In this document: positions 3,654 to 19,799 of the stretch, piece after piece | How positions within the stretch are numbered: position 1 is the first letter of the stretch | Layout of the letters: every line of letters starts with the position of its first letter | DNA from: Desulfohalobium retbaense DSM 5692 | GTDB lineage: Bacteria > Desulfobacterota > Desulfovibrionia > Desulfovibrionales > Desulfohalobiaceae | Direction: 5' to 3' | Assembly (NCBI RefSeq): GCF_000024325.1 | Contig: NC_013223.1 | Coordinates: forward strand, 2,795,353 to 2,819,352 | DNA length: 24,000 nt | Notes under the pieces: model-generated | Seen by the model: the letters and a program-made list of their open reading frames with translations, nothing else | Told to the model about the DNA's origin: nothing | The model's database searches: none | Program-made: the position numbers and the translations under genes

Positions 3654-5606
3654 ATGCAACGCAATCTGAACAAGCGCTTCTTTCAACCAGCGATGATCGT
3701 CCTGATCTATGTGCTTGTCGCCGGAGTCTGGATCGTCTTTTCTGATTCCATTGTCGCCCAATTAGCGCCATCAAGCCATTGGCGCACGACCCTCCAAAGC
3801 CTGAAAGGCCTTTTCTTTGTCGCCGGTACCGGCATTTTGCTCTACGTCCTGATCCGGGGATATGCGGAAAGTCTGCGCCAAAAAGAGCGGCACAACCGTC
3901 TCACCCAGCGCGCAGCCAAAGCCTGCAGTTGGGACTGGGATATCGAAGCAGACCGTTTCACCTGGGCCGGCGACGTCTCCAGTTTTCTAACCGAAGGGGA
4001 CGGCACCTCCCCTTTGCCCCGGACCTATCAAGATGTGCTCCGGCACATTCATCCCGAAGACATTCCGAACTTTGAACGAGCGGTCCAGGAAAGCTTGCTG
4101 CGCGACCAGGAACTCCACTTGGAATTTCGCTGGCAACGGGGCGCCAATACGCGGTGGTTTTTTGCCGTGGGCGAGGTGGAACGCGACCTCACGACGAACA
4201 AGCCCCAGCACTTGCGCGGCATCATCCGCGATATCACCCAACGCAAACAGGCAGAGCAAGAACTCGCCTATAAAAGCGAATGGGACGGTCTCACCGGCCT
4301 GCTCAACCGTTCCTTCTTTCTCAAGCGCCTGGAACAGCTTTTCCAAACCCAGCGCCGCCTGGGGCACTGCTCCTTTGCCGTCCTGCTTTTGGACATCGAC
4401 CGCTTCAGCCGAATCAACGACAGCCTCGGACACTGGGTGGGCGACGCTGTATTGCAGGAAGCCAGCCGCCGATTGGCCAACTTTCTCTCTCCAGCGGATT
4501 CCCTGGCCCGGCTGAGTGCCGATGAATTCGGCATCCTGCTCCAGGCCAGCAACGACCAGGACCAGGTCCTGAGAAGCGCCCACCATATTCTCGAGGTCCT
4601 GAAAACCCCGATGCACCTCTCTCCGCATGACATCAATATCACGGCCAGTATAGGGGTGGTGACCTGTTTCGACGCCAATCCTTACAACAATCCGGAATAT
4701 ATTCTGCGCGATGCCGCCACAGCGATGCGCCAGGCCAAACTCCAGGGCGGCGACCAGATCGCCGCGTTCAAAAAAGCCCTGCACACCCAAGCTTTTGAAG
4801 CCCTGTCCCTGGAGAATCAGCTTCGAAAAAACCTCCGAGACCCGGCTCAACAGGAACTCTTTCTGGCCTTCCAGCCCATCGTCGACCTGGGCAGCGGTGA
4901 GATTGCGGGATTCGAGGCCTTGATCCGCTGGAGGCTGGCCGACGGAACGGTCATTCCGCCCAATCGCTTTATTCCCGTGGCTGAACAAAGCGGATTGATC
5001 CAGCCGCTTGGCAAATGGGTCCTGGATTCGGCCTGTGCGGCACTGGCCGCATTGCGGGCGAATGACCCCAATGCAGTTGACCACATGCATGTCAACGTCA
5101 ATGTGTCCGCCCGCCAATTGGAACAGCACGATTTTGTTCGCGAAATCAATGAACTGCTCCTGATTCACAACCTGCCTGCCCAGACCCTGCGTTTGGAACT
5201 CACTGAGACCGTGCTCATGGAGAACGCCGCCCAGGTCCAGAATTTCCTCGGCCAACTCCAGGAGATCGGCATCGGAGTGGCGGTGGATGACTTCGGAACC
5301 GGATATTCCTCGTTGAGCTATCTGCACCGTTTTTCGATCAACACCTTGAAAATCGATTTGAGTTTTGTCCAAAGCGTTTTGACCAACGAGCACAGCAAAG
5401 CCATCACCCAGGCCATTATTGATATGGCCCAATCCTTGAACAAAACTGTTGTCGCTGAGGGCATTGAAACGCAGGAACAGGCCGCCCTGATAGCAGCGAT
5501 GGGATGCCGGTACGCGCAGGGATTTCTCTTCAGTTACCCCCTTGAGAAGGAAGCGCTTCCGCAATTGCTCGACCAACAGCCCCTTGTGCCGACCCCTCGG
5601 GAATAA
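3654..5606 (+). CDS. Membrane-anchored PAS-GGDEF-EAL c-di-GMP turnover protein; GGDEF degenerate (SADEF), EAL motifs intact
   Basis: 650 aa with two N-terminal TM helices and a PAS-like region (WDWDIEADRFTWAG…). The GGDEF domain reads LLDIDRFSRINDSLGH … RLSADEFGILL (SADEF at 4515..4529). The EAL domain carries EALIRW (4914..4922), NVNVS, ELTE, DDFGTGYSSLSYL, KIDLSF, EGIET and AQGF. RBS AAGGAGAGG. Confidence 0.92.
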   Translation: MQRNLNKRFFQPAMIVLIYVLVAGVWIVFSDSIVAQLAPSSHWRTTLQSLKGLFFVAGTGILLYVLIRGYAESLRQKERHNRLTQRAAKACSWDWDIEADRFTWAGDVSSFLTEGDGTSPLPRTYQDVLRHIHPEDIPNFERAVQESLLRDQELHLEFRWQRGANTRWFFAVGEVERDLTTNKPQHLRGIIRDITQRKQAEQELAYKSEWDGLTGLLNRSFFLKRLEQLFQTQRRLGHCSFAVLLLDIDRFSRINDSLGHWVGDAVLQEASRRLANFLSPADSLARLSADEFGILLQASNDQDQVLRSAHHILEVLKTPMHLSPHDINITASIGVVTCFDANPYNNPEYILRDAATAMRQAKLQGGDQIAAFKKALHTQAFEALSLENQLRKNLRDPAQQELFLAFQPIVDLGSGEIAGFEALIRWRLADGTVIPPNRFIPVAEQSGLIQPLGKWVLDSACAALAALRANDPNAVDHMHVNVNVSARQLEQHDFVREINELLLIHNLPAQTLRLELTETVLMENAAQVQNFLGQLQEIGIGVAVDDFGTGYSSLSYLHRFSINTLKIDLSFVQSVLTNEHSKAITQAIIDMAQSLNKTVVAEGIETQEQAALIAAMGCRYAQGFLFSYPLEKEALPQLLDQQPLVPTPRE

Positions 5607-5632
5607 CACCATGCATCGCAGAGGAGGCTTTT

Positions 5633-6550
5633 TTGGTCACTGATATCGTCTGGGCGGTGGTCCAGATATTTTGCGTCTTTGGCCTTGGCTGGCTGGCTAG
5701 GCATCTCAATTACCTTCAAGGCATGGATATCGGGCGTTTCAGCCGGTTGGCCATCGATTTCCTGATGCCCTGCCTTGTTTTTTCGGCCACCACCGAACAT
5801 TTTGCCACCGAGCGCTTGCACGAACTCTGGCCCCTGCCGGTCATCGCTTTCGCCATCGTGGTCTTTGGGACCTGTGTGGGGGCTGGGGCACGGCTTTTGC
5901 TCAAAAAACGGACAGTGGCGCAACGCAGGACGGTCCACCACCTCTGCGCGGTGAACAACGCCGTTTTTCTCCCGGTGATTCTCGTAGAAAACCTGTGGGG
6001 AGACGCCGCGGTAGCCAATCTCTTTTTCTTCAGCCTCGGAGCGGCACTCGGGCTCTGGAGTATCGGCGTCGTCCTGCTCGGCGGCGGTTCCTGGCGCGAT
6101 GGCGTTCGCCATCTGCTCACACCGACCCACCTCGCCCTGCTCATGGCACTCACCCTGTGTCTTCTGGGAGCGACCGAAGCGATACCAACCATAGTGGCCC
6201 AGACCACCGCCTTTGTCGGTTCGGCCGCCATCCCGCTGGTCCTCTTTCTCGTGGGAGCCAGCCTCTATCCCCTGCCGGATTTCTCTCCCCGGCGGCTTGT
6301 CCTCTTGACCTCCTGCTTGCGCATCATTGGTATCCCGGTCTTGCTGACCCTCATCCTGCGTCAATTGCCCATCGTGGACGACGTCTACAATATGGCTGTC
6401 GTCAACGCCTTCATGCCAGCTGCGGCCATTTCGACCATCTTGACCCACCGCTTTGGTGGCGACCCCCAGCTTGCCGCCAGTACGGTCGTGGCCACCACCC
6501 TAGCCTCACTGATCACCGTGCCCCTCGGCCTAAGCTGGGCCCTGATCTGA
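5633..6550 (+). CDS. AEC (auxin efflux carrier) family transporter
   Basis: 305-aa polytopic membrane protein, about 10 TM. The N-terminal pattern (IFCVFGLGWLARHLNYL…GRFSRLAIDFLMPCLVF) and the C-terminal PAAISTILTHRFGGD are typical of AEC/malonate-type permeases. TTG start is preceded by GAGGAGG at 5 nt. Confidence 0.82.
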   Translation: MVTDIVWAVVQIFCVFGLGWLARHLNYLQGMDIGRFSRLAIDFLMPCLVFSATTEHFATERLHELWPLPVIAFAIVVFGTCVGAGARLLLKKRTVAQRRTVHHLCAVNNAVFLPVILVENLWGDAAVANLFFFSLGAALGLWSIGVVLLGGGSWRDGVRHLLTPTHLALLMALTLCLLGATEAIPTIVAQTTAFVGSAAIPLVLFLVGASLYPLPDFSPRRLVLLTSCLRIIGIPVLLTLILRQLPIVDDVYNMAVVNAFMPAAAISTILTHRFGGDPQLAASTVVATTLASLITVPLGLSWALI

Positions 6551-6684
6551 ACAAAAAAGTGGCCATCCAGCACACCTCTCTCTTGCCAGATCAACCCCTG
6601 CCACCAGATCCAGAAGCCCCCCTGCATTCGTAAAGGTCCTTTGCGCGCAACGCTGCCGGAGTTGGCAGGTGCTTGAAAAGCCCC

Positions 6685-6718
6685 CAATGGCAGCAAAACT
6701 GCGAGACGTTCAAACTCG
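6685..6718 (+). repeat. 34-nt repeat, copy 1, whose + strand reads as a sigma-54 -24/-12 core (TGGCAG-N5-CTGC)
   Basis: caatggcagcaaaactgcgagacgttcaaactcg matches 20747..20780 at 31/34 positions. GG is at 6689-6690 and GC at 6701-6702, exactly 10 nt apart. It sits ~550 nt upstream of the amyloid operon on the same strand. Confidence 0.5.
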
Positions 6719-6792
6719 GACCTACGAATACGCGCGCTAGGACCGCGAACTTTTGGCTCTTCGTCACAGGGCATGGAATTTCAGACGCAAAA

Positions 6793-7029
6793 GTTTGCCG
6801 TCTCTTCTGTGTGCTTCGAGCGAAAGGCCCACACATTTTCTTGGTCCCGCCAAAAGGGGGAAACCGGACCGCGAACTGAATGCTCCCAGGCGGATTCCGG
6901 TGCAACAAGGGCCATCTTCGACACCTAGAGTTCTGTTCCACTTGAGAGTCCGGAGGGGGCAAGGATCCCCCTTTGGCGGGATTGAGAAAATACCGGGCCG
7001 AAAGTGGGCACACAGAAGAGACGGCAAAC
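6793..7029. repeat. Long imperfect palindrome bounded by perfect 22-bp inverted repeats (MITE-like element or structured RNA/UAS)
   Basis: GTTTGCCGTCTCTTCTGTGTGC (6793..6814) is the exact reverse complement of 7008..7029. Inner arms also pair: cccgccaaaaggggga (6846..6861) with tccccctttggcggg (6966..6980), and accgga with tccggt. No credible ORF lies in this interval. Confidence 0.6.
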
Positions 7030-7241
7030 TCCAAAAATCCACTGGATCCGTCAAAGAACCGAACTTTTTTGCGCCGTCCCTTAGGATTTTTGAACAGTCA
7101 GTTGGGCCCACGGCCTCGCGACCATCCGTTAATTGCTGTAAAGACTGTCTTCCCCCCCATTTCCTTCGCTTTTTACGTTCCCTACGCTGAAAGCTTTACA
7201 TCCTGCCTAAATAAAGTCTTGCATTTCGGGTAATTATTTAT

Positions 7242-7257
7242 CGGCACGCCTCTTGCT
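7242..7257 (+). promoter_or_regulatory. Sigma-54 (RpoN) -24/-12 promoter for the amyloid operon
   Basis: cGGCACGcctcTTGCTt compared with the consensus TGGCACG-N4-TTGCW. GG is at 7243-7244 and GC at 7255-7256 with the exact 10-nt spacing. It lies directly upstream of the first ORF of the operon, and a sigma-54 activator is encoded in the same locus. Confidence 0.65.
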
Positions 7258-7269
7258 TGTATCTCTCGC

Positions 7270-7593
7270 ATGAAGACGCCATCTGCCGCCCTTGCCTCCC
7301 TTTTGTTCCTTCTTGCCAGCCTCAGTGGTCCAGGCCCGCTGAGCGCTGGACCACTTTGCCCTCAGGAGAAGACCTCCCAGTCGGCCACGGCATGGCAAAG
7401 TGTGCAGGATGACCAACTCTACGCGGTTTTTGGGCGGTTTTCTCCGGCGACCAGCACAGCCGCTATGCCGAATCCCCCAGGGGATATCATTTTGTGGGAC
7501 GAGGCCAAGGGAAGTTCCCGTGAAGCTGCCCACAGCTCCTCTTCGGGCACCAATATCAGTATCCAACGGACACAGACCCATTTCGACCATTAA
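7270..7593 (+). CDS. Hypothetical small secreted protein occupying the FapA position; coding status uncertain
   Basis: 107-aa ORF with a convincing Sec signal peptide (MKTPSAALASLLFLLASLSGPGPLSA|GP). Its stop lies 19 nt before the next gene. There is no Shine-Dalgarno, and the predicted sigma-54 transcription start (~7268) would make it leaderless. No recognisable family motif. Confidence 0.45.
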   Translation: MKTPSAALASLLFLLASLSGPGPLSAGPLCPQEKTSQSATAWQSVQDDQLYAVFGRFSPATSTAAMPNPPGDIILWDEAKGSSREAAHSSSSGTNISIQRTQTHFDH

Positions 7594-7612: not shown

Positions 7613-8242
7613 ATGCTTGGACATCCATCCCGCTCCGCACACCATCTCTGTAAAAGCCTACTTGGAACAGTCCTCGGGATCCTGTTGGCCACGGCAGTCG
7701 CTGCTCAACCGCCGCAAGGCGGAGTGAATGTCAACATCATCGAGGATAACGCCCTGGCGGGTAGCACCGGCGTGATCGGGGTCAATACAGCTGCCGGCGA
7801 CAACCACGTCCAGGCGAACCAATGGAGTATTGGTGTCGGGACAACCGCAGATTTTGGACATGTTGACCAGACCACCCTTTCCATCGGCACGCCTCCAGAA
7901 TTGAGTATCGACCGCATTACAGACAACGCCTTCCAAGGGGTCTCGGGACTTCTGAGCGTGAACCAGGCCGCTGGGAGCGGGTCCGCCGAGAGCAACCAGG
8001 TCTGTATCGGAATCGGCATGGCCACAAACGCCAGACCGGTTTCGGCCAGCAATCTGCGTCAGACGGTGGGTTCCGCCACTGCCTCACGACCCAACGTGGG
8101 AAGTCAGCGGGCGGATATTATAGACGGACAGGCATTCTCCGGGGCCAGCGGTGTGGTCCAGGTCAACCAGTCCGCGGGCTCGGGCAATGGTGTGTCCAAT
8201 CGTGTTCTTATGGACATGGGATTTATGGACGTCACACCCTAA
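7613..8242 (+). CDS. fapB: FapB-like amyloid subunit (secreted, three Fap-type repeats)
   Basis: The true start is taken as ATG 7613, not the 7400 track start, which overlaps the upstream ORF. Signal peptide: …LLGTVLGILLATAVAAQ. Three repeats are present: IEDNALAGSTGVIGVNTAAGDNHVQANQ, ITDNAFQGVSGLLSVNQAAGSGSAESNQ and IIDGQAFSGASGVVQVNQSAGSGNGVSNR. The protein is Gly/Asn/Gln/Ala/Val-rich, and its size (209 aa) and position before the larger repeat protein match FapB. Confidence 0.75.
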   Translation: MLGHPSRSAHHLCKSLLGTVLGILLATAVAAQPPQGGVNVNIIEDNALAGSTGVIGVNTAAGDNHVQANQWSIGVGTTADFGHVDQTTLSIGTPPELSIDRITDNAFQGVSGLLSVNQAAGSGSAESNQVCIGIGMATNARPVSASNLRQTVGSATASRPNVGSQRADIIDGQAFSGASGVVQVNQSAGSGNGVSNRVLMDMGFMDVTP

Positions 8243-8271
8243 CCCAACGTGTAACCAGAGGAGGTTCTCCC

Positions 8272-9573
8272 ATGAAACGGTTTATGAGTGTCGTACTCGG
8301 TTGTGCAATGCTGTTGTGCTTCGGCACCTCAGCCAATGCTCAAGGCCATCCGGCCATCATCGCAGGCCTCGTCGCTGACGCGGAACTCAGCGGCAATCTC
8401 GATCTGACCCTGCAGCTGATGGCCGAAGCCAACATCGGCGTTTATTTCGCCATGGTCGACGCAGATGTCGCAATCGACGGCGATATCGATGTCGACGGGG
8501 TCACCCGCAGTTTGGCGAAGAATGATCAATTCCTGATGATCAATTCGGTGAACAATTACGAAGTTGATAACACCGCTACGGTCTCCGGCGAAGTGTTGAA
8601 GGGTGCTGCCGGCAATATTGGTGTCAATATCGCTGCTGGCGATTTCAATGCCCAAAGCCAGGTCGTCGCGGTTGCCGCTTCCGAACAGGAACGGAGTATG
8701 GCTGAAGCCAAATCCTTCAGTGTCCAAAAGGCAATGTTCAACAGCGCCTGCAACGAAGGGGTGACCAACAAAGCCTTGGCCAAGGGCGATGCGCTCATGG
8801 GCGTCAGCGGCAACATCGGATTGAATATCGCCGCTGGGAACCACAACGGGCAGACGAATATGTTTGCGGCGACAGTGGCCCCATCCCGGGTCTCGGTGGC
8901 CACCGCCTATGTGCAACAGAAAAACATGCACAACACCGTGGGAAACATGCCCCTTGTAGAAGAATACGTCGAAAATGTCCCTGTTAACCTGGGACTTAAT
9001 GCTGGCGGCACCGCTGGATCCACCAACCAAATCGGATTCTACGGAGGTGATACCCAGGGCAGCTTTAATGGCGAGACCTCGGGCATGAGCTACCAGGCCA
9101 GCAACTTCTACCCCGATGTTTGGGCCCGCAACCCGAACTTCCCGATCGACGAGCAACACCCCAATTCGCCAGAGCATCTGGGCCATGTTGACTTCGACGC
9201 CGCCACACAAGGCGCCATCGACAACCCGAACCGCGAGGGCGTCGGCGGAATGGCCTTTGACAACGAAGGCACGGTTGAAGGCGACTACGAAGGCACTGAA
9301 TCCGGTATGTTCATGGGCGGCATCGGCTCCCAGCAAATCCAGCTGACCGGCACTGTCACCGGTGATATCCCTGTCGTCGTAACCCGCTATGTGGGCGCCA
9401 CCAACACCGCGACCCTGAGCAACCGAGTACTCATGAACGCCGAGGGCAATGTCGGTGTCAATGTGGCTGCCGGCACCAACAACCTGCAAGCCAATTCGCT
9501 CTCTGTGAGTTATGTCCCGGCTGCGAACGGCAATATCCCCACTCCTGGCAATGGAGGCGGCGGGGAACAATAA
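8272..9573 (+). CDS. fapC: FapC-like major functional-amyloid subunit (three repeats, two linkers)
   Basis: 433 aa with a strong RBS (GAGGAGG) and signal peptide …CFGTSANA|QG. R1 (8569..8679): NTATVSGEVLKGAAGNIGVNIAAGDFNAQSQ. R2 (8767..8880): NKALAKGDALMGVSGNIGLNIAAGNHNGQTN. R3 (9403..9510): NTATLSNRVLMNAEGNVGVNVAAGTNNLQAN. The core GN(I/V)G(V/L)N(I/V)AAGxxNxQxN matches the repeat I recall from Pseudomonas FapC. A long G/N/E/D-rich second linker separates R2 and R3. Confidence 0.85.
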   Translation: MKRFMSVVLGCAMLLCFGTSANAQGHPAIIAGLVADAELSGNLDLTLQLMAEANIGVYFAMVDADVAIDGDIDVDGVTRSLAKNDQFLMINSVNNYEVDNTATVSGEVLKGAAGNIGVNIAAGDFNAQSQVVAVAASEQERSMAEAKSFSVQKAMFNSACNEGVTNKALAKGDALMGVSGNIGLNIAAGNHNGQTNMFAATVAPSRVSVATAYVQQKNMHNTVGNMPLVEEYVENVPVNLGLNAGGTAGSTNQIGFYGGDTQGSFNGETSGMSYQASNFYPDVWARNPNFPIDEQHPNSPEHLGHVDFDAATQGAIDNPNREGVGGMAFDNEGTVEGDYEGTESGMFMGGIGSQQIQLTGTVTGDIPVVVTRYVGATNTATLSNRVLMNAEGNVGVNVAAGTNNLQANSLSVSYVPAANGNIPTPGNGGGGEQ

Positions 9574-9657: not shown

Positions 9658-10365
9658 ATGAAAAGAAGCAGATGGCATTTCGGACTGGCAAGTACCCTCC
9701 TGCTCTTCTTTGCTCTAAGCCTGGCGAGCCCGGGCTTTTCAGGCACGTTGCAACTCAAGGTGGGGCCAAACGGGTGTTTCATGCGCAAAGAAATCCAAAG
9801 CGTCAAAGAGCTTCGCTACAAAAACATTGTCAGGCAGGGTCTGGACTACAGTTGCGGTTCAGCCGCCCTGGCGACGATCATCAAATACTACTACGGCCGA
9901 AAAAAGCTGACTGAACAGGACATCGTCAAAGATATCCTTGAAAAAGGGGACGATGCGCGGATAAAAGACAAAGGATTTTCATTGCTTGATCTCAAACAAT
10001 ACGCGGAACGGCAAGGCTTCAGGGCTGAAGGGTACAAAATAGAAGCGGATCAATTGTCGCAGCTGAGTATTCCAATCATCGTTCTGATGGAAGTCAAAAA
10101 TTATAAACACTTTGTGGTACTCAAAGGAGTCAAAAACAATAAGGTGTATCTTGGCGATCCGGCCTATGGCCATCGTGTTGTCAAGTTGGAAGAATTTTCC
10201 AAATCCTGGAACAACATCTTTTTAGCCGTTCTCGGCACCAATCCGGACAAAGATCTGTATAAACTCCACCAACTCAATGTCTCTCAAAAAGATGCCTGGA
10301 GTCTTCGTCAGACAGCTCTCCCGCTTCACTTTATGACTCGCCCTTTTGAAATGAATTGTAACTGA
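9658..10365 (+). CDS. fapD: Stand-alone secreted C39-family cysteine peptidase (FapD-like)
   Basis: 235 aa with signal peptide (…FFALSLASPGFSG). C39 catalytic layout: Q60-x5-C66 (RQGLDYSCGSAALATI; TGC at 9853..9855), H151 (KHFVVLKG) and D167-P (YLGDPAYG). There is no ABC transporter domain. It sits immediately downstream of the FapC-like gene, as in fapABCDEF. Confidence 0.85.
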   Translation: MKRSRWHFGLASTLLLFFALSLASPGFSGTLQLKVGPNGCFMRKEIQSVKELRYKNIVRQGLDYSCGSAALATIIKYYYGRKKLTEQDIVKDILEKGDDARIKDKGFSLLDLKQYAERQGFRAEGYKIEADQLSQLSIPIIVLMEVKNYKHFVVLKGVKNNKVYLGDPAYGHRVVKLEEFSKSWNNIFLAVLGTNPDKDLYKLHQLNVSQKDAWSLRQTALPLHFMTRPFEMNCN

Positions 10366-10389
10366 TGTTGCACGAAAAGGGGAAAATAC

Positions 10390-10869
10390 ATGTGGACATA
10401 TAAACAAAGCATCGTTGTCCTCTTCTTTGTATTCGTCTTTCTGGGCGCAGCCCAACCGGCCCAGAGTTCCGGGATCCTGCCCGAGAGTATTCAGGCGCAG
10501 GCTCTCGCGGATACACAACTTGAGGAGATACGGGGAAAGTTCATGGGGTTCTATTTTTCCATGAACTATTCCATGTATTGGGATACGAGCGGCAACCAAT
10601 TTGCCCTGAATGATGCGGCCGGTGGGGCGAATACGGATCTCGTCCGTGCTCCGGGGGATTCCTCGGTCCAGCTCAACAACCCCTTGGGAACGAGCACCGC
10701 CGTCATAGGCGATTTTCAGGGCGGAAGCGGTATTTTCCAAATAAACCAAGTTCCTGGAAACAATAATCTGGTGAATAACAGTCTGGTTCTTGATATAGCC
10801 ATCTTTACACTCCAAGAATCACAAATAGGGCAAATGCAAAGCGTCCTTCAGGATTTTCTCCAATTCTAG
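10390..10869 (+). CDS. Small secreted protein with one degenerate Fap-type repeat (FapE position)
   Basis: 159 aa with RBS AAGGGGA and signal peptide MWTYKQSIVVLFFVFVFLGAAQPAQS|SG. It has a single repeat-like segment, IGDFQGGSGIFQINQVPGNNNLVNNS, and a C-terminal …DFLQF. Confidence 0.8.
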   Translation: MWTYKQSIVVLFFVFVFLGAAQPAQSSGILPESIQAQALADTQLEEIRGKFMGFYFSMNYSMYWDTSGNQFALNDAAGGANTDLVRAPGDSSVQLNNPLGTSTAVIGDFQGGSGIFQINQVPGNNNLVNNSLVLDIAIFTLQESQIGQMQSVLQDFLQF

Positions 10870-10931
10870 TCGTTCACAAGATCGACAATGAACTTGAAGG
10901 ACACCGGCTAGACTCAATTCCCCTTTTGACG

Positions 10932-10987
10932 ACAGGTAGTACGGGAAGCGGATACCTAATGCTTTCAACGTGCTACCTGTTTTTTTG
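10932..10987 (+). terminator. Rho-independent terminator closing the amyloid operon
   Basis: acaggtagtacg (10932..10943) pairs with cgtgctacctgt (10969..10980): 12 bp with 1 mismatch and a 25-nt loop. A T7 run follows, 62 nt after the stop of the 10390..10869 gene. Confidence 0.6.
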
Positions 10988-11135
10988 CTGCTCTTCCATT
11001 TTTTTGTGCTTTATGACAAAACCTGGTTGAAAAGACCGTATTTTCGTTGTAAAAGAGACATAAATAGTCCTCTCCGTTTTTTATTCCATACATATCAACA
11101 TATTAAATCAGAAGCAGAGCACGGAGCGAAATCTG

Positions 11136-12605
11136 ATGCATAGAATTGACATTCGCTGTGAATGCAATTTAGCTGCTCAAGCATTCTCGCCACCCCATTG
11201 CGATGATTGTGAAAGCCGTTACCCGGTGAAGATAATCGATATAAGCTTGGGAGGGGCCAAACTAGTATTCAACACCCTCCCATTCAATAATGACTATTTT
11301 ACTCTCAAGCTTGAAGACTTTCCAAATATTGAAATTGTGGCTTATGTAAAATTTAAAAAAGAAAATCAGGCTATAGTTGTTTTTTATTACGACTCAGTCG
11401 AAAATGCGCAAAAAATAATTGAGATAGTACGAAAACACTACGAACACAAAAACCACAATTACTGTCCCTATTGCGGCCAAACCCACGCCAGTGGAAGTCT
11501 TTTCTGCCCTCATACCCAGTTAAGCTTGAACATTTACGACCCCGCCTACCTCAATGACCACGTCTGTCGAACGCTCCTCAAACGCATCAGTTGGCGATTG
11601 CACAATGTTGATTGCGACAAAGCCTGGTCTATTCTCTCTTCCCTCGACAAACAATTACTCAGTGTGCAGCCCACAACCGCACAATTGGAGATCGTAGGGA
11701 CCTCTCCAGCCATGTTGAATCTCTTTTCACAAATCCGCAAAGTCGCCGCCACCGACCTCCCCGTTCTCATTCTTGGCGAAAGCGGAACCGGTAAAGAGCT
11801 CGCTAGCAAAGCTATATTCGAACGAAGTGACCGCAAATCGAAACCATTTATCGTCATCAACTGTGCAGCCATTCCCGAAACTTTGCTCGAGGCTGAACTT
11901 TTTGGGTACGAACGCGGCGCGTTCACTGGCGCGCACACGACCCGCCACGGCAAATTTGAGCACGCTGACGAAGGCACAATCCTTTTGGATGAAGTCGGAG
12001 ACCTCCCCCAATCCCTTCAAGCGAAGCTCCTGCGCTTTCTTGAAGAAGGGACCATTGAACGCCTCGGCTCCAATACCCCCCGACAACTTGATATCCGCAT
12101 CCTGGCAGCCACCAACCAGGACCTTGAAAGCAAAGTCCACAACGGCACCTTCCGACTTGACCTCTACCACCGGTTGAGCGCCTTCACCATTACCCTTCCC
12201 GCCCTGCGGGACCGCGGCGCCGACAAGACCATCCTCGCCAAATTTTTCCTCAACAAATTCAGTCAAAAATACAATTCCGGTCGCCCCATGGTCTTTTCCA
12301 GCACGGCGATTGGGGCCATCAACGACTATGCCTGGCCCGGCAATATCCGTGAAATGATCAATAAAATCCGCAAGGCAGTCGTCATAGCCGACTCGCATAC
12401 TATTAGCACGGAAGATCTGGGGCTCCATACATCCCAACCCACGTCATTGGGCGCCCAAAATGAGGGACGGAAAAAGAAAATTGACAAAGCGACCCTCCTT
12501 GAAACGCTGGATGCATGCAGTTGGAACAAAAGCCTGGCTGCCAAAAGGTTATGCATAAGCAGACCGACATTGTACAAACTGACACGGGAGTACGGACTTC
12601 TATGA
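11136..12605 (+). CDS. Sigma-54-dependent transcriptional activator (bEBP) with N-terminal PilZ domain and Cys-rich linker: PilZ-AAA+-Fis HTH
   Basis: 489 aa. PilZ motifs: RIDIR (RxxxR, 11142..11156) and DISLGG (DxSxxG, 11238..11255). A CPYCGQTHASGSLFCPH zinc-ribbon-like segment follows. AAA+ motifs: Walker A GESGTGKE, GAFTGA (11916..11933), Walker B LLDEVG and the arginine-finger region RLDLYHRL. C-terminal Fis-type HTH: NKSLAAKRLCISRPTLYKLTREYGL. There is no receiver, GAF or PAS domain. Confidence 0.9.
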   Translation: MHRIDIRCECNLAAQAFSPPHCDDCESRYPVKIIDISLGGAKLVFNTLPFNNDYFTLKLEDFPNIEIVAYVKFKKENQAIVVFYYDSVENAQKIIEIVRKHYEHKNHNYCPYCGQTHASGSLFCPHTQLSLNIYDPAYLNDHVCRTLLKRISWRLHNVDCDKAWSILSSLDKQLLSVQPTTAQLEIVGTSPAMLNLFSQIRKVAATDLPVLILGESGTGKELASKAIFERSDRKSKPFIVINCAAIPETLLEAELFGYERGAFTGAHTTRHGKFEHADEGTILLDEVGDLPQSLQAKLLRFLEEGTIERLGSNTPRQLDIRILAATNQDLESKVHNGTFRLDLYHRLSAFTITLPALRDRGADKTILAKFFLNKFSQKYNSGRPMVFSSTAIGAINDYAWPGNIREMINKIRKAVVIADSHTISTEDLGLHTSQPTSLGAQNEGRKKKIDKATLLETLDACSWNKSLAAKRLCISRPTLYKLTREYGLL

Positions 12606-12774
12606 GGGCTGACTGTTGAAAAATTCCTTTTAACACAGGTTGTTCACAAAACCCACAGAGTTGGCGACACAACGTTCCAGATCACAGCGTATACATGCAA
12701 AGGTACGTGTTGGAACATATTGCAGTTTTGTTGCCATTGGGAAGGCTTGAGCGACCTGATAGGAGGGTGGTTCT

Positions 12775-13293
12775 ATGCTGAAAAAATGTCTCCCCGCTTT
12801 TTTGCTTGTTCTATGCTTCGCCCCTCAACTGGCTCTGGCACAGGCAAAAATTGGTTTTTTTGATCTGCAGGAAATCATTCGCAGTTCTGAGGCTGGCAAG
12901 CAGTCCCAACAAGAATTGCGCCAGTTTGTTGAATCCCAGCACGCCCTCCTGCGATCTAAGCGTGACAACATCGAAAAGGCCCAAAAAGCGCTGCAAGATG
13001 CCCCAAAAAACAATGGTGAGCGGAAAAAACTGCAACAGCAATTAAATGAACAGATTGATGAGTACCGAAGCCTCAGCTCGCAATACCGCAGCGAACTCCA
13101 AAAAAGAGATGCCGCATTGACAAACTCAATAAATCGTGACGTACAGGGCATCGTTCACCGCATAGCGCAACAGATGAAGTTGACCTTTGTCTTCGAAACC
13201 AATGGGTGCGGAATAGTTGTTTATCCAGAATCTACCGATATCACAGAAGAAGTTATTCAAGAATACAACTCCGCCTTGATTTCTCAAAAGTGA
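12775..13293 (+). CDS. Skp/OmpH-family periplasmic chaperone
   Basis: 172 aa with RBS AGGAGGG and signal peptide …CFAPQLALA|QA. It opens with the OmpH signature KIGFFDLQEIIRSSEAGKQSQQEL, followed by a long K/Q/E-rich coiled-coil. Confidence 0.85.
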   Translation: MLKKCLPAFLLVLCFAPQLALAQAKIGFFDLQEIIRSSEAGKQSQQELRQFVESQHALLRSKRDNIEKAQKALQDAPKNNGERKKLQQQLNEQIDEYRSLSSQYRSELQKRDAALTNSINRDVQGIVHRIAQQMKLTFVFETNGCGIVVYPESTDITEEVIQEYNSALISQK

Positions 13294-13332
13294 TTTTGAC
13301 CATTCTGGACTTCAACCTATGGAGGGCTTGGT

Positions 13333-14322
13333 ATGTTGCGTGTTATAAAACCAACCATTTACATCGCCTGCTTCCTTTTTTTCTGGACATCGATCTCCCC
13401 TGTCTATGGACAATCCAACTCCACAACCTCTCCCAAGGATGAAACAACAGAAATCGAACAGGGAGGAGCCCTCCTGGATCCTGGTCAATTTATTTGGGAG
13501 CCCGGCATACAGTACTCCCATACATCACGGACACGACTTTCCATCAGTGGTTTCACGATCTTTGAGGCTATTGTCTTAGGAAGAATTCAAACTGAAGACT
13601 CAAAAAAAGATGTCATCATGCCGTATATGAACTTCAAAGCAGGACTTTTAAAGAATCTCCAACTTGATATTAAAGTTCCATTTTTATATAGACGTGACCG
13701 TATCACTTCAGATAGCAATGATGACGACGAAAAAATCATAACTGACGCGAACCTCGGAGATATAGAAGCTGCGCTTTATACCCAGGTTCTTCGTGAACGG
13801 GGCGCGATTCCGGATTTAATCATAAACACCAGAGTCAAAAGCAGAACCGGCCAAGATCCGTATGACCTGGAAACAGACGATGACGATGATCCCACAGAAC
13901 TTCCCACAGGAAGTGGTCATTGGGGAGTGTCATGGGGATTAACAGCCTCGAAAAGCAGCGACCCTGCTCTCCTTTTTGCCTCTTTAAATTATTACTATAA
14001 TATAAAGCGAGATATTGGCGATGACATTGGCGAAATAGAACCAGGGGATAGCATAGAATACGGCTTTGGCCTCGCCTACGCTTTAAATGAACGACTCTCC
14101 AGCAGCATCTTTTACCAGCAGCGTATTTATGACAAAACCAAACAAAATGGGGAAGGGATAGACGGAAGCGATCTCAATGTCAGCACTCTCTATTTTGGCG
14201 CCAATTACGCCCTCTCACCGCAGCGCAGTATCAGCGTTTCCCTGGGCACCGGGCTTTCCGAGGACGCACCGGACGTCACCCTCCAGGTGAGTATGCCTAT
14301 TCTCTTCGGGCTGGACGGATAA
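13333..14322 (+). CDS. Outer-membrane beta-barrel protein (MetA-pathway/transporter-like); candidate secretion pore of the locus
   Basis: 329 aa with RBS GGAGGG and a signal peptide (…FFWTSISPVYG|QS). Amphipathic beta strands alternate throughout. LGDIEAALY and LPTGSGHWGVSWGL motifs resemble small OM channel families, and acidic loops are present (DSNDDDE, ETDDDDDP). The gene starts 39 nt after the skp-like gene. Confidence 0.75.
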   Translation: MLRVIKPTIYIACFLFFWTSISPVYGQSNSTTSPKDETTEIEQGGALLDPGQFIWEPGIQYSHTSRTRLSISGFTIFEAIVLGRIQTEDSKKDVIMPYMNFKAGLLKNLQLDIKVPFLYRRDRITSDSNDDDEKIITDANLGDIEAALYTQVLRERGAIPDLIINTRVKSRTGQDPYDLETDDDDDPTELPTGSGHWGVSWGLTASKSSDPALLFASLNYYYNIKRDIGDDIGEIEPGDSIEYGFGLAYALNERLSSSIFYQQRIYDKTKQNGEGIDGSDLNVSTLYFGANYALSPQRSISVSLGTGLSEDAPDVTLQVSMPILFGLDG

Positions 14323-14519: not shown

Positions 14520-14595
14520 TGGTGCCGAGGAACGGAATCGAACCGCTGACACGGGGATTTTCAGTCCCCTGCTCTACCGACTGAGCTACCTCGGC
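14520..14595 (-). tRNA. tRNA-Phe (GAA)
   Basis: The reverse complement folds as a 76-nt cloverleaf. Acceptor GCCGAGG/CCTCGGC; D arm GCTCAGTCGGTAGAGC; anticodon stem GGGGA/TCCCC with loop CTGAAAA; T arm AGCGGTTCGATTCCGTT; encoded CCA. Confidence 0.95.
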
Positions 14596-14627
14596 GCATG
14601 GAAGCGCTTTCCCGTACGAAAGCGGGA

Positions 14628-14714
14628 TGGTGCCGAAGGGGAGATTCGAACTCCCACGGGCTGGTGCCCACTAGACCCTGAACCTAGCGTGTCTACCAAT
14701 TCCACCACTTCGGC
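14628..14714 (-). tRNA. tRNA-Leu (CAG), class II with long variable arm
   Basis: The reverse complement is GCCGAAGTGGTGGAATTGGTAGACACGCTAGGTTCAGGGTCTAGTGGGCACCAGCCCGTGGGAGTTCGAATCTCCCCTTCGGCACCA. Anticodon loop TTCAGGG (CAG), long variable arm, T loop TTCGAAT, encoded CCA. Confidence 0.93.
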
Positions 14715-16031: not shown

Positions 16032-16171
16032 CCTGCCTGCTTGGTCTGGCTTGTGTTTTTGGACTTGGGTCCCCTTTTCGTGTCCTTCGGACGCGAAGAC
16101 GCAGCAACCTATGAACCCGCTCTTTGCTTTGCAGCTGTTGTCCACAGCAACGGAGATATCCCGTGATACTC

Positions 16172-17974
16172 ATGCGCCCATTTTGCCGTCTCTGGCATGA
16201 GGCCATAAAAACGTATCGGACCGTGAACACGGTCCGCCTTCTTTTACTCGGTATCGTGGTTGGCGTGCTTTCCGGAGCTGGTGCCATTGTCTTTTTTGCC
16301 GGTGTAGAAGGTATTCGCTTCCTCTTATTGACCAAACTGGCCGGGATGTCCCTGCCGGCTCCGGCAGGCGAAGAACTTTTCCACGGTCATGCCGGCCCCA
16401 GTCGGCCCTGGTTGATTCCCGTCTTCACTACGGGCGTGGGGCTCATCACCGGGCTGCTGGTCTACAAATGGATTCCCGACACCCACGCCAACGGGACCGA
16501 CGGCACCGACTCCATGATCAAGTCCTTTCACCGATTGGGCGGACTGATCAAGCCGGTTGTTCCCCTCATCAAAAGCGGCACAGCAATTCTGACCATCGCC
16601 TCGGGCGGCTCAGCAGGCCGGGAAGGGCCCATCTCCCAGATGGGAGCTGGCTTCGGCTCCTGGCTGTCGACCAGAATGGGGCTGACAGCCAAAGAGCGCC
16701 GCATCCTCCTGCTCTCCGGGGCTGCCGGCGGACTGGGCGCCATCTTCCGCGCCCCTCTGGGCGGCGCCCTGACAGCCATTGAAGTCATCTACCGCGAAGA
16801 CTTTGAAACGGAAGCCCTGCTCCCCGCGGTTATCTCCTCCGTCGTCTCCTATACCCTGTTCACCCTGGTCTTTGGCACCGACCCCATTTTCGGCATCCCC
16901 CGCTTTTCCTTCAACGATCCTCGTGAACTGCTCTTCTATGCGGCCCTGGCCCTGGTCTGTTCCCTGACCGGCTGGTTTTACGTACGCACCTTCTTTGCCA
17001 TCAAATACTCCGTTTTCGAACAGATCAAGAAAAAGGTCGGACTGGTCTGGACCACGACCCTTGGCGGATTGCTCATGGGCCTTTTGGGGATGCAGTTTCC
17101 CCAACTCTTAAGCGGTGGCTATGGCTGGCTGGAAATGGCTATGGTCGGCCAATTGTCGGTCGGCTTCATGGGGGCCATTCTCGTCGGCAAAACGTTGGCG
17201 ACTTCCATCACCCTCGGTTCGGGGATGAGCGGCGGGATGTTCGCTCCAGCCCTCTTTGTGGGCGGTATGAGCGGGGGGATGGTCGGTTACACGGCCCACA
17301 ATTTCTATCCCGGGATCGTCAGCCAGCCCGGAGGGTATGTCCTGGTCGGCATGGCCGCCTTTTTCGCCGGCGTGGCCAATGCCCCCATCGGCCCACTGAT
17401 CATGGTCTGCGAACTGACCCAGGGCTATGGGCTTTTGGCCCCGCTCATGCTCGCTTCTGCCGTCTGCCTGGTCGTCAACCGCAATATCTCTTTGTATGAA
17501 AACCAGGTCGATAATAAATTCGACTCTCCGGCCCACATCGACGACGCGACTATCAATGTCCTCGAAGGGTTGCAGGTCAAGGACTATTACCAACGCGGCC
17601 AGGTCACGACCATGGAAGAGTCGACCACCTTCAAAGAAATTACTGAAATGATCACCAACTCCAACGAGCTCTATTTCCCGGTCTGCAATCAGAAGGGGCT
17701 CGTTACCGGAATTGTTGCGGTTCAGGATTTGCGCCGGGTCCTGTTCGAGGATTGTCTCTGCGAACTGTTGCTTGCGAAAGATGTTGCGCGAAATCCGGTT
17801 CTTCTGCATCCTGAAGACGATCTCTACACCGCCCTGCTCAAATTCGTGGACACGGATATGGGGCAGATTCCCGTCGTTTCTCCAGAGGACCCCAGACGCA
17901 TTCTCGGGCTGTTGGCCAGGGAGGATGTCTTTATGGCCTATAAAAAGGCTCTTCAAGCCATAAAAGAATTGTGA
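16172..17974 (+). CDS. ClC-family chloride channel/antiporter with C-terminal CBS pair
   Basis: Motifs GTDGTDSMIK, GGSAGREGP (gating Glu), GGMFAPALFVG and PIGPLIMVCELT, then two CBS-like segments. The start could instead be GTG 16163, which has better spacing to GGAGA at 16152. Confidence 0.88.
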   Translation: MRPFCRLWHEAIKTYRTVNTVRLLLLGIVVGVLSGAGAIVFFAGVEGIRFLLLTKLAGMSLPAPAGEELFHGHAGPSRPWLIPVFTTGVGLITGLLVYKWIPDTHANGTDGTDSMIKSFHRLGGLIKPVVPLIKSGTAILTIASGGSAGREGPISQMGAGFGSWLSTRMGLTAKERRILLLSGAAGGLGAIFRAPLGGALTAIEVIYREDFETEALLPAVISSVVSYTLFTLVFGTDPIFGIPRFSFNDPRELLFYAALALVCSLTGWFYVRTFFAIKYSVFEQIKKKVGLVWTTTLGGLLMGLLGMQFPQLLSGGYGWLEMAMVGQLSVGFMGAILVGKTLATSITLGSGMSGGMFAPALFVGGMSGGMVGYTAHNFYPGIVSQPGGYVLVGMAAFFAGVANAPIGPLIMVCELTQGYGLLAPLMLASAVCLVVNRNISLYENQVDNKFDSPAHIDDATINVLEGLQVKDYYQRGQVTTMEESTTFKEITEMITNSNELYFPVCNQKGLVTGIVAVQDLRRVLFEDCLCELLLAKDVARNPVLLHPEDDLYTALLKFVDTDMGQIPVVSPEDPRRILGLLAREDVFMAYKKALQAIKEL

Positions 17975-17981
17975 GCGGCCC

Positions 17982-19799
17982 ATGGATATACTCCGGACCG
18001 TGCGTGAAACCCTGACCTTTACTACTGAAACCTCGCCTCTGAAACGCACTGGAAAATGGCTCCTGGTGTACATCCTGATCGGAGTCATTGCCGGACTGGG
18101 TTCCATCCTGTTCCACACGCTTTGCGAATTGGGCATGCACTTTTTTCTGGACGGCCTGGCCGGATATCGTCCACCTGTTCCGGCTGGCGAGCATGCCTTG
18201 CTGCCCCCGACAGACACCCCCTTTTCCCGCTGGATTTTACTTTTCCTCCCGGCCCTGGGCGGACTGGTCAGTGGCTGGCTGGTTTACACCTACGCCCCGG
18301 AAGCTGAAGGCCACGGTACCGACAGCGCCATCGACGCCTACCACAACAAAGGCGGACAGATCCGGGGCCGGGTACCGATCATCAAGACCGTGGCCTCGGC
18401 CATTACCTTGACCACTGGTGGCTCCGGAGGGCGGGAAGGCCCGATCGCCCAAATCGGGGCCGGATTTGGCTCATTTCTGGGCAATCAGCTCGGCTTGTCC
18501 GAACGCGAGCGCCGGATCATGCTCGCCGCAGGGGTAGCGGCCGGTGTCGGGAGTATCTTTCGCGCCCCCATGGCCGGGGCGCTGTTTGCGGCTGAAGTGC
18601 TCTACCGTGAACCGGAATTCGAGTCGGAGGTCATCATTCCCGCTGGCATCGCTTCGGCGGTGGCCTATTGTATTTTCTGCCTTGTCTACGGCTGGGGCTC
18701 CCTCTTCCACGCCCCGAATTTCACGTTCACCAATCCCCTTGAACTAGGGCCGTACGCTCTTTTGGCCCTTGTTCTGACGGCCGGGGGCTTCGTGTACGTC
18801 AAATGCTTCCACGGCGTTCACGCGCTGTTTGCCAAAATCCCTATCAAAAACCACTTCAAGCCGGCCATTGGCGGTCTGCTCACCGGGGGCATCGGCTTTT
18901 TCCTGCCCCAGACCCTGGCTTTCGGCTACGGGGTCGTCCAACAGGCGATCAATGGAGAACTCGGCATTGCCCTCCTGCTCGGCGTAGCCCTGGGCAAAAT
19001 CCTGACCACGTCCTTCACCATCAGCTCCGGCGGCAGTGGCGGCGTCTTCGGACCATCCGTGGTCATTGGCGGCGCGTTGGGCGGCGGAGTGGGGCAAACA
19101 GTGGACGCGCTCCTTCCGGGCCTGATCGACCCCGGCGCCTTCATCATCGTTGGCATGGCCGGTTTCTTCACCGCGGTGTCCAACACCCCGGTCTCGACAA
19201 TCATCTTCGTCAGCGAGATGACCGGGTCCTACCACCTGCTTCTGCCCAGCCTCCTGGTCTGTTTCCTGTGCCAGATCCTGGCGCAGAAGGTGACCATCTA
19301 TGTCGAACAATACGCCAACAAGCTCCAGTCTCCGGCCCATGCGGGCGAGTTTTTCGTGGACGTCCTCCAATCCTTCCGCGTTCGCGATCTGCTCGGTCAA
19401 ATCCGCAAGTTCGTGACCGTTCCCGAGGGCATGTCGTTTGCCAAGTTCAAAGAATTCTTCTCCGACACCACCCAGGATTACTTTCCTGTGGTCAATACCC
19501 GCAATGAACTCAGCGGCATTTTCACCAACCGCGATATCCGAACTATCCTTTTTGCTCCGGAGGTCGACGACCTGGTTGTGGTCAAGGACATTGCCACGAC
19601 AGACCTGATCACCACCAACCCGGATGAGGACCTGGGCACGGTGATGACCAAATTCACCAAAAAGAACCTCGACTGTCTGCCCGTCGTCGATGTCCAAAAC
19701 CCGAACCATCTTCTCGGCATGCTCAGACGGCGGGAAGTGATCGCTTTTTACAACAATGAACTGGCGAAGATGAAACGCCAAGGCAACTCAGAGCGTTAA
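17982..19799 (+). CDS. ClC-family chloride channel/antiporter with C-terminal CBS pair (tandem paralog)
   Basis: 605 aa with EGHGTDSAIDAYH, GGSGGREGP, GGVFGPSVVIGG and PVSTIIFVSEMT, followed by a CBS pair (YFPVVNTRNELSGIFTNRDI; CLPVVDVQNPNHLLGMLRRREV). It starts 7 nt after the previous ClC gene. Confidence 0.9.
   Translation: MDILRTVRETLTFTTETSPLKRTGKWLLVYILIGVIAGLGSILFHTLCELGMHFFLDGLAGYRPPVPAGEHALLPPTDTPFSRWILLFLPALGGLVSGWLVYTYAPEAEGHGTDSAIDAYHNKGGQIRGRVPIIKTVASAITLTTGGSGGREGPIAQIGAGFGSFLGNQLGLSERERRIMLAAGVAAGVGSIFRAPMAGALFAAEVLYREPEFESEVIIPAGIASAVAYCIFCLVYGWGSLFHAPNFTFTNPLELGPYALLALVLTAGGFVYVKCFHGVHALFAKIPIKNHFKPAIGGLLTGGIGFFLPQTLAFGYGVVQQAINGELGIALLLGVALGKILTTSFTISSGGSGGVFGPSVVIGGALGGGVGQTVDALLPGLIDPGAFIIVGMAGFFTAVSNTPVSTIIFVSEMTGSYHLLLPSLLVCFLCQILAQKVTIYVEQYANKLQSPAHAGEFFVDVLQSFRVRDLLGQIRKFVTVPEGMSFAKFKEFFSDTTQDYFPVVNTRNELSGIFTNRDIRTILFAPEVDDLVVVKDIATTDLITTNPDEDLGTVMTKFTKKNLDCLPVVDVQNPNHLLGMLRRREVIAFYNNELAKMKRQGNSER

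Follow-up and report, generated by a model that had tools for sequence, protein, structure and literature searches.

A predicted PilZ-gated sigma-54 activator within a Fap-like amyloid cluster of Desulfohalobium retbaense, from an apparently uncharacterised family linked to fap genes

We analysed a 24,000-nucleotide stretch of Desulfohalobium retbaense DSM 5692 (NCBI RefSeq contig NC_013223.1, positions 2,795,353 to 2,819,352; hereafter the window), which carries a Fap-like amyloid gene cluster and, inside it, the gene for a bacterial enhancer-binding protein (bEBP). This activator combines an N-terminal PilZ domain, a zinc ribbon, a sigma-54 AAA+ module, and a Fis-type helix-turn-helix (HTH) in a single polypeptide. 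We consider it reasonably probable that the protein is a one-protein switch from cyclic di-GMP (c-di-GMP) to RpoN for amyloid production, in which the PilZ domain would gate the bEBP; ligand binding and the direction of control are the parts of this reading that we infer. An original prediction made from the DNA sequence had proposed the same function, and that proposal is strengthened here by at least six further lineages in which proteins of this architecture are encoded next to fap genes, in gene orders that differ. Coordinates of all features are collected in Table 1.

Judged by its motifs and its modelled fold, the N-terminus of the activator is a PilZ domain with a complete c-di-GMP-binding signature, and it is predicted to bind that ligand. 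Both halves of the signature named in the original prediction, RIDIR at residues 3-7 and DISLGG at residues 35-40, stand where it had placed them. DISLGG starts 28 residues past R7, and a (D/N)x(S/A)xxG motif is expected 20-30 residues after RxxxR. The PilZ, Sigma54_activat, and HTH_8 domains that it led us to expect were all found by domain search, with PilZ close to the PF07238 gathering cut-off of 22.5 bits: the full protein scored 22.2 bits and the N-terminus alone 24.0-24.7 bits. Taken individually, twenty-six of thirty-five family N-termini matched Pfam PilZ (best E = 1.5e-10), and the homologue at locus L002 scored 29.2 bits over profile positions 3-100. We aligned sixty-nine relatives that are 37-88 per cent identical to the query overall. 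The N-terminus is divergent (17-31 per cent identity among the thirty-four relatives aligned there), and only R3, R7, C110, C113, and C124 are invariant within its 185 positions, with both arginines kept in all aligned members (69/69). Position 35 is D in twenty-four members, N in twenty, and E in nineteen (D/N/E 63/69; D/N 44/69), position 37 is S in fifty-three and G in fifteen, and position 40 is G in 60/69.

Structural comparisons point the same way. A profile of the family N-termini matched the BcsA PilZ structure 4i86 in the PDB (E = 1e-3), with RxxxR and DxSxxG in register and RIDIR opposite RNSHR; PA4608 and Alg44 were also matched, more weakly. An AlphaFold2 (AF2) model of residues 1-187 had a predicted local distance difference test score (pLDDT) of 92 and a predicted template modelling score (pTM) of 0.84. 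It contains the six-stranded barrel and C-terminal helix expected of PilZ, in the form of an N-terminal loop, strands at 8-17, 28-36, 40-45, 54-59, 66-75, and 78-84, and a helix at 88-101. When Foldseek was run against the PDB, the top forty-two matches were all PilZ domains, ahead of any other fold (template modelling score, TM, 0.64-0.78 on the target). Most of these are c-di-GMP complexes, and they include MapZ, BcsA, Alg44, YcgR, MotI, MrkH (5kgo and 5ejl), and PA0012. Because of the motif invariance across sixty-nine homologues, the Pfam matches within the family, and the AF2/Foldseek fold, we regard the PilZ call as well above chance. Separately, a Cys-rich loop (C8, C10, H21, C22, C25; residues 8-25, window 11157-11210) lies between strands 1 and 2. 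We rejected C8/C10/C22/C25 as a conserved second metal site, as the 88 per cent identical relative has Phe in place of C25 and other family members lack these cysteines.

After the PilZ domain, the CxxC…CxH connector noticed earlier was recovered as C110-P-Y-C113...C124-P-H126. This segment matches Zn_ribbon_3 and Zn_Ribbon_1 (residues 107-126) below their Pfam cut-offs, and its profile resembles the ribbons of ribosomal L32/L37ae. C110, C113, and C124 are invariant in the sixty-nine members, and C127 is found in 67/69. The two-helix linker that follows leads into a hinge, and the full-length AF2 model has good individual domains, a pTM of 0.57, and low confidence across this hinge (residues 178-185, with low pLDDT at 178-181). 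The complete sigma-54 AAA+ module (GESGTGKE, GAFTGA, LLDEVG) and Fis-type HTH that had been described held up on both motif reading and Pfam search (Sigma54_activat, residues 186-352, E = 8e-69; AAA_lid_14, residues 358-436, E = 1e-16), and the module is predicted to be catalytically complete, GAFTGA included. NCBIfam returned only generic sigma-54 activator models for the protein, over the AAA+-HTH part and all under cut-off. The gene has a GGAG 9 nt ahead of its ATG.

The fusion is not rare. A full-length search returned many proteins of ~480-490 amino acids (aa) that cover the whole query at 40-50 per cent identity, many family members in public databases carry precomputed PF07238 and PF00158 matches, and public data hold dozens of clusters at 50 per cent identity. 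We also searched a profile of the N-terminal module exhaustively against 1.84 billion cluster representatives, which yielded eighty-seven clusters at E <= 1e-10 and thirty-five at E <= 1e-30. All matches longer than ~450 aa measured 455-545 aa, the shorter ones look like fragments, and the weaker ones were ordinary PilZ proteins and zinc-ribbon repeats. From these sequences, the PilZ/zinc-ribbon/linker module seems confined to this single architecture. In a word-indexed protein database the N-terminus alone or its profile gave almost no matches, which is a limit of the index's sensitivity. Named members, all with generic annotations only, come from Geotalea uraniireducens, G. toluenoxydans, Thermosulfurimonas, Nitrospiraceae, and Geothermobacteraceae, with further members in Thermodesulfobacteriaceae and Desulfarculaceae genome bins. 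No Pseudomonas proteins were among the family matches. A scan of contigs was swamped by generic activators, which entered through the patterns NCAAIP and EAELFG, and gave full-length relatives at L001 and L002 only; the other matches of that scan (L003-L080) carry no fap genes and were left out.

Early surveys of PilZ domains reportedly list fusions to many signalling outputs. Full-text literature searches returned no description of a PilZ/sigma-54 activator fusion, and a preprint on PilZ diversity (bioRxiv 10.1101/814665) does not mention one. The architecture may already be known to specialists through Pfam or InterPro. The family is conserved and apparently uncharacterised, with no characterised PilZ-gated member in the searchable literature.

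The amyloid locus posited around the activator was borne out by NCBIfam matches to the repeat subunits FapB and FapC, the C39 peptidase FapD, and the outer-membrane channel FapF, all encoded in one cluster. The scores fall under the equivalog cut-offs, so the window proteins are distant homologues. We take the fapA-like open reading frame (ORF) to be real because it carries the ILWDE motif common to fapA-like proteins. The regulator lies beside fap genes in the 88 per cent identical relative (L081-L084), with the gene order of the window. It is upstream of the fap cluster in L086 and L087, back-to-back with fapF in L088 and L090, beside fap genes in L089, and between fapE and fapF in L001; in L002, fapF alone was seen before the contig end. 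In all, linkage to fap was found in at least six further distinct lineages with varying gene orders. Since the linkage survives rearrangement, it argues for a functional tie between the regulator and matrix production.

Other members of the family have different neighbours. In Geotalea uraniireducens Rf4, a cultured relative of Geobacter (L091, CP000698, 11772-15842), the regulator is followed by a sigma-54 promoter and a related cluster. This cluster encodes a C39 peptidase and a FapF-like barrel together with a 171-aa protein and two secreted proteins of unknown kind. The subunits differ from Fap, and the genes may specify a fibre system that is related to Fap but built of novel subunits, in a host open to genetics. 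In the Nitrospiraceae locus L092, the genes that come after the regulator encode a GGDEF protein and two cellulose synthases with PilZ domains. Two other family members have housekeeping genes around them, and a small ORF comes directly after each.

A sigma-54 promoter had been assigned to 7242..7257, and the assignment stands. The site, CGGCACGCCTCTTGCT, lies directly ahead of the fapA-like gene, departs from the consensus at a single base, is intergenic, and is identical in the 88 per cent relative (L081). Equivalent -24/-12 sites precede the fapA-like genes of L001 (a perfect match), L086, L088, L089, and L090. In all seven loci (these five, the window, and L081) the fapA-like ATG falls 13-17 nt past the C of the -12 GC. 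The stretches from promoter to ATG are 7242-7272 in the window, 131-164 in L001, 5239-5268 in L086, 4441-4471 in L088, 3700-3733 in L089, and 5264-5295 in L090. The predicted leader is therefore only ~1-5 nt, and on this spacing the fapA message would be essentially leaderless and would lack a ribosome-binding site. No c-di-GMP riboswitch or other RNA element was found upstream of fap.

Candidate enhancers were found further upstream. TGTAAA-N5-TTTACA palindromes occur 68-82 bp upstream of the -24 element in L088 (4295, 4373), L090 (5123, 5193), L092 (3513, 6046), L093 (11526), and L094 (7558), and some also ~150 bp upstream, next to PilZ-activator genes; about 0.06 such placements would be expected by chance. 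In the subclade of the window the half-sites are abutted or dispersed and the exact palindrome is absent. TGTAAA-type half-sites cluster 42-105 bp upstream of -24 in the window, and ...CTTTACATCC is common to the window and L001, 48 and 60 bp upstream of -24. The enhancer assignment in the window is accordingly given as tentative. Footprinting against the 88 per cent relative was uninformative because the non-coding DNA is nearly identical.

Two side observations concern these regulatory regions. L094 has tandem PilZ-type activator paralogues (5340-6791 and 7664-9115) with a 163-aa ORF between them, and the second copy is preceded by a sigma-54 promoter and a perfect TGTAAAAGAATTTTACA site; the arrangement points to autoregulation or to a regulatory cascade. 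Upstream of fap, the window has a 314-bp segment (6746-7059) that the otherwise almost identical L081 lacks. The direct repeat CGAACTTTT flanks this segment, and an inverted repeat (6741-6760 / 6783-6802) overlaps with it; its presence shifts any distal enhancer ~300 bp further from the promoter. The segment could be a small insertion, either mobile or resembling a miniature inverted-repeat transposable element, or the relative could carry a deletion.

The mechanism that we propose is as follows. At high c-di-GMP, the RxxxR tail at the N-terminus would clamp the ligand against the surface of the barrel. This would alter the seating or pairing of the compact PilZ/zinc-ribbon/linker module on the AAA+ domain, on the other side of the flexible hinge. 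We favour relief of inhibition here, by analogy with activators of the NorR, DctD, NtrC1, and XylR type. The AAA+ ring would then assemble on TGTAAA-type upstream sites, and ATP hydrolysis would open the RpoN holoenzyme complex at 7242..7257. Transcription would run through fapA-B-C-D-E and might continue into the regulator gene, skp, and fapF. The neighbouring EAL protein could lower c-di-GMP locally. Activation, as opposed to inhibition, at high c-di-GMP is suggested by analogy, because the Pseudomonas bEBP BrfA acts in this direction on Fap and because the L092 member has cellulose-synthase neighbours.

Several observations weigh against this reading. On the single activator sequence the PilZ call is borderline, and the Pfam match spans residues 25-98 only, which puts the RxxxR tail outside the scored alignment. 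For every member of the family, c-di-GMP binding and activity are predicted from sequence and fold. Given the pTM and the low-confidence hinge of the full-length model, the packing of its domains is not confidently predicted, and assembly or dimerisation driven by the ligand is equally possible in place of relief of inhibition; our choice is a guess. In the window clade (the query, P0001, and P0002), two residues that are near-invariant in the family are replaced, C127 by Thr (11514-11516) and W95 by Ile (11418-11420). The zinc site of this clade may be altered as a result of such changes, with His126 a possible substitute for the fourth ribbon cysteine. The mismatch in the promoter is a C for the first T of the consensus, and no rpoN gene lies within the 24-kb window. 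About one-quarter of the family (19/69) has E at the D/N position 35, and about one-fifth (15/69) has G at the S position 37. These non-canonical second motifs also fit a PilZ fold that was kept without c-di-GMP sensing, either to bind another nucleotide (e.g. the cyclic GMP-AMP 3'3'-cGAMP, which relatives of Geobacter use) or as an interaction or dimerisation module; the true sensor, of redox or metal, would then be the zinc ribbon. The ribbon cysteines are as invariant as the arginines, and non-binding PilZ-related domains do exist (bioRxiv 10.1101/814665). We nonetheless think this unlikely: non-binding variants typically lose RxxxR, yet both arginines are retained throughout this family, DISLGG of the activator itself is canonical throughout, PilZ domains with bound ligand are the closest matches in structure, and EAL or GGDEF genes adjoin in the window and in L092.

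The sign of control is not fixed by sequence, and c-di-GMP inhibits the ATPase of FleQ and FlrA (PMC10333796). Binding to the PilZ domain could thus turn the activator off, with Fap produced at low c-di-GMP or the protein acting as a repressor, as FleQ does on flagellar genes. We give this little credence, as Fap is a biofilm-matrix component that high c-di-GMP induces through BrfA in Pseudomonas (PMC13101488), and the cellulose synthase genes beside the L092 member are also high-c-di-GMP outputs. It is also conceivable that the activator is a mere neighbour of fap that serves some other sigma-54 promoter, with 7242..7257 used by another activator or present by chance. Consensus matches with at most one mismatch are not rare in the 24-kb window, occurring at chance frequency, the window has no full enhancer palindrome at <=2 mismatches, and ~3.9 kb separate the promoter from the activator gene, which is located within the cluster. 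We hold this to be very unlikely against the co-location with fap in at least seven lineages despite rearranged gene order, the -24/-12 site before the fapA-like gene in 7/7 loci at a fixed distance from the ATG, and the clustering of half-sites just upstream. Finally, FleQ, FlrA, and probably BerB bind c-di-GMP through their AAA+ domains (PMC10333796, PMC5552954), and the activator might sense it in the same way with PilZ as an accessory. The FleQ LFRS motif is absent from the activator when its sequence is read directly, and the PilZ motifs are strictly conserved; this last alternative strikes us as the most improbable of all.

Beyond the switch itself, we tentatively advance a broader claim, to which we give somewhat less than even confidence. 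The family would be the first defined one in which a canonical PilZ domain directly gates an AAA+ sigma-54 motor. In Desulfobacterota-like bacteria, Thermodesulfobacteriota, Geobacterales, and Nitrospirota, it would serve as a master switch by which c-di-GMP governs loci for Fap-type amyloid and related matrix, and would be dedicated to that role. It would have its own TGTAAA-N5-TTTACA enhancer code, a strictly conserved Cys4 ribbon as a possible redox or metal input, and a near-leaderless fapA. As far as we found, the links of the family to fap, the common enhancer motif, and the near-leaderless fapA are new.

Table 1. Predicted features of the activator gene, its putative target promoter, and the surrounding cluster (window coordinates)
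Feature	Coordinates	Strand	Evidence
bEBP gene, PilZ / zinc-ribbon / sigma-54 AAA+ / HTH_8, 489 aa	11136..12605	+	ORF, Pfam, NCBIfam, full-length homologues 37-98% identical
PilZ domain, residues 1-101	11136..11438	+	Pfam, AF2, Foldseek, family profile
RxxxR motif, R3-I-D-I-R7	11142..11156	+	R3 and R7 invariant, 69/69
D/NxSxxG motif, D35-I-S-L-G-G40	11238..11255	+	family alignment
Zinc ribbon, residues 107-130 (C110, C113, C124, H126)	11454..11525	+	sub-cut-off Zn_ribbon_3/Zn_Ribbon_1, conserved Cys
Two-helix linker, residues 138-155 and 160-177, then flexible hinge 178-185	11547..11666	+	AF2 models
Sigma-54 interaction AAA+ and lid	11691..12443	+	PF00158 E=8e-69, PF25601 E=1e-16
Walker A, GESGTGKE (214-221)	11775-11798	+	read from sequence, family-invariant
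GAFTGA (261-266)	11916-11933	+	read from sequence, family-invariant
Walker B, LLDEVG (283-288)	11982-11999	+	read from sequence, family-invariant
Fis-type HTH_8, residues 449-481	12480..12578	+	PF02954 E=6e-7, 29.5 bits vs cut-off 22
-24/-12 promoter CGGCACGCCTCTTGCT, likely activator target	7242..7257	+	one mismatch to TGGCAC-N5-TTGCW, GG and GC intact
Candidate enhancer half-sites (T/C)GTAAA(G/A), tentative	7137-7143 (+), 7171-7178 (-), 7194-7200 (-); region 7137..7200		
fapA-like small secreted protein, 107 aa, ILWDE motif	7270..7593	+	conserved in L081, L086, L088, L089, L090, L001
FapB-like amyloid subunit	7613..8242	+	NCBIfam FapB E=6e-24; PF27129 FapBC on identical gene in L085
FapC-like amyloid subunit	8272..9573	+	NCBIfam FapC E=6.5e-38; PF27129
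FapD-like C39 peptidase	9658..10365	+	Peptidase_C39 E=5e-27; NCBIfam C39_FapD E=2.4e-56
FapE-like secreted protein	10390..10869	+	repeat motif common with FapB/C; L081 ortholog weak PF27129
Skp/OmpH periplasmic chaperone	12775..13293	+	PF03938 E=2e-25; syntenic in L081, L086
FapF-like outer-membrane amyloid transporter	13333..14322	+	NCBIfam FapF E=1.2e-49; Phenol_MetA_deg
Membrane PAS / degenerate GGDEF (SADEF) / EAL protein	3654..5606	+	Pfam EAL E=1e-73, GGDEF E=4e-41; syntenic in L081

The gene for a membrane PAS-GGDEF-EAL protein stands two genes ahead of the fap promoter. The protein keeps EAL and DDFGTG unaltered and has SADEF in place of GGDEF; by these motifs it is probably a c-di-GMP phosphodiesterase, and it may set local c-di-GMP for the PilZ activator. 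A TolC-like protein and an auxin-efflux-type carrier are also encoded upstream of the fap cluster. Between the regulator and fapF sits a Skp/OmpH gene, whose product may chaperone FapF or the amyloid subunits; Pseudomonas fap operons are not known to have such a gene. No terminators were found around the regulator gene. GC content is 44-47 per cent over fapD-fapF (window 10000-14000) vs 55-62 per cent elsewhere, the end of the cluster adjoins tRNA-Phe and tRNA-Leu genes (14520-14714), and an IS66 element follows fapF in L082. There are hints here that part of the fap cluster is a horizontally acquired island. Elsewhere in the window, a 464-aa ORF (102-1496) has no Pfam or NCBIfam match, and two tandem genes for ClC-type chloride channels with CBS domains follow ribF (16124-19799).

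How c-di-GMP activates rather than inhibits a bEBP ATPase is still unclear for BerB and BrfA, and the separable, well-understood ligand site of a PilZ domain would make a clean system for studying the coupling of ligand to ATPase. If our reading is true, c-di-GMP control of functional amyloids extends beyond Pseudomonas to anaerobic sulfate- and metal-reducing lineages. The ligand, protein, and sigma-54 promoter would form a compact orthogonal part for a c-di-GMP biosensor, and the promoter and enhancer motifs of the family would make its regulon computable in metagenomes.

The N-terminus of BrfA is probably of the receiver type. BrfA of P. fluorescens is a c-di-GMP-sensing bEBP that acts at the RpoN-dependent fapA promoter (PMC9207406, PMC13101488), so the logic of c-di-GMP acting through a bEBP and RpoN on fap is not new. 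As with BrfA, the bEBP gene here lies next to a fap cluster with a -24/-12 promoter before fapA; the c-di-GMP input of our activator is predicted. Unlike the 489-aa activator, BrfA has 441 aa, and its gene lies downstream of fapF and is read in the opposite sense. Descriptions of BrfA go no further than an RpoN-dependent regulator of the Fis family; the sensor of the activator is a PilZ domain plus zinc ribbon, and the hosts here are Desulfobacterota-like, Thermodesulfobacteriota, and Nitrospirota rather than Pseudomonas. The shorter length of BrfA, its taxonomy, and the absence of Pseudomonas proteins among the family matches speak against its membership of the PilZ/zinc-ribbon family and against orthology of its N-terminus with that of the activator.

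FleQ, FlrA, and BerB share with the activator an AAA+ sigma-54 core with GAFTGA and a Fis HTH, and all three respond to c-di-GMP and control biofilm matrix genes. They differ from it in having no PilZ domain (PMC10333796, PMC5552954). FleQ and FlrA bind c-di-GMP on the AAA+ domain through LFRS, RN, and ExxxR motifs (PMC10333796), in agreement with the original prediction, which had set FleQ apart as binding through AAA+ and not a PilZ. The c-di-GMP site of BerB, a protein without a sensor domain, is unmapped (PMC5552954). Like the activator as we read it, MrkH of Klebsiella pneumoniae is a one-polypeptide transcription activator with a canonical PilZ domain, by which c-di-GMP is converted directly into expression of a surface-fibre operon (type 3 fimbriae). 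In contrast to the activator, MrkH has no AAA+ or HTH_8 domain, is not sigma-54 dependent, and pairs its PilZ with a PilZ-like N-terminal barrel. MapZ/PA4608, BcsA, Alg44, and YcgR resemble the activator in fold and in both ligand motifs (TM 0.64-0.73, root-mean-square deviation 2.1-3.5 A, ~100 residues). These receptors act through contacts with other proteins or by gating a glycosyltransferase, and do not drive an ATPase motor for transcription; the activator also differs from canonical PilZ receptors in that RxxxR begins at residue 3 and a zinc ribbon follows the PilZ helix. Set against these systems, the circuit logic and the domain combination would not surprise specialists; the family itself is uncharacterised, well defined, and experimentally tractable.

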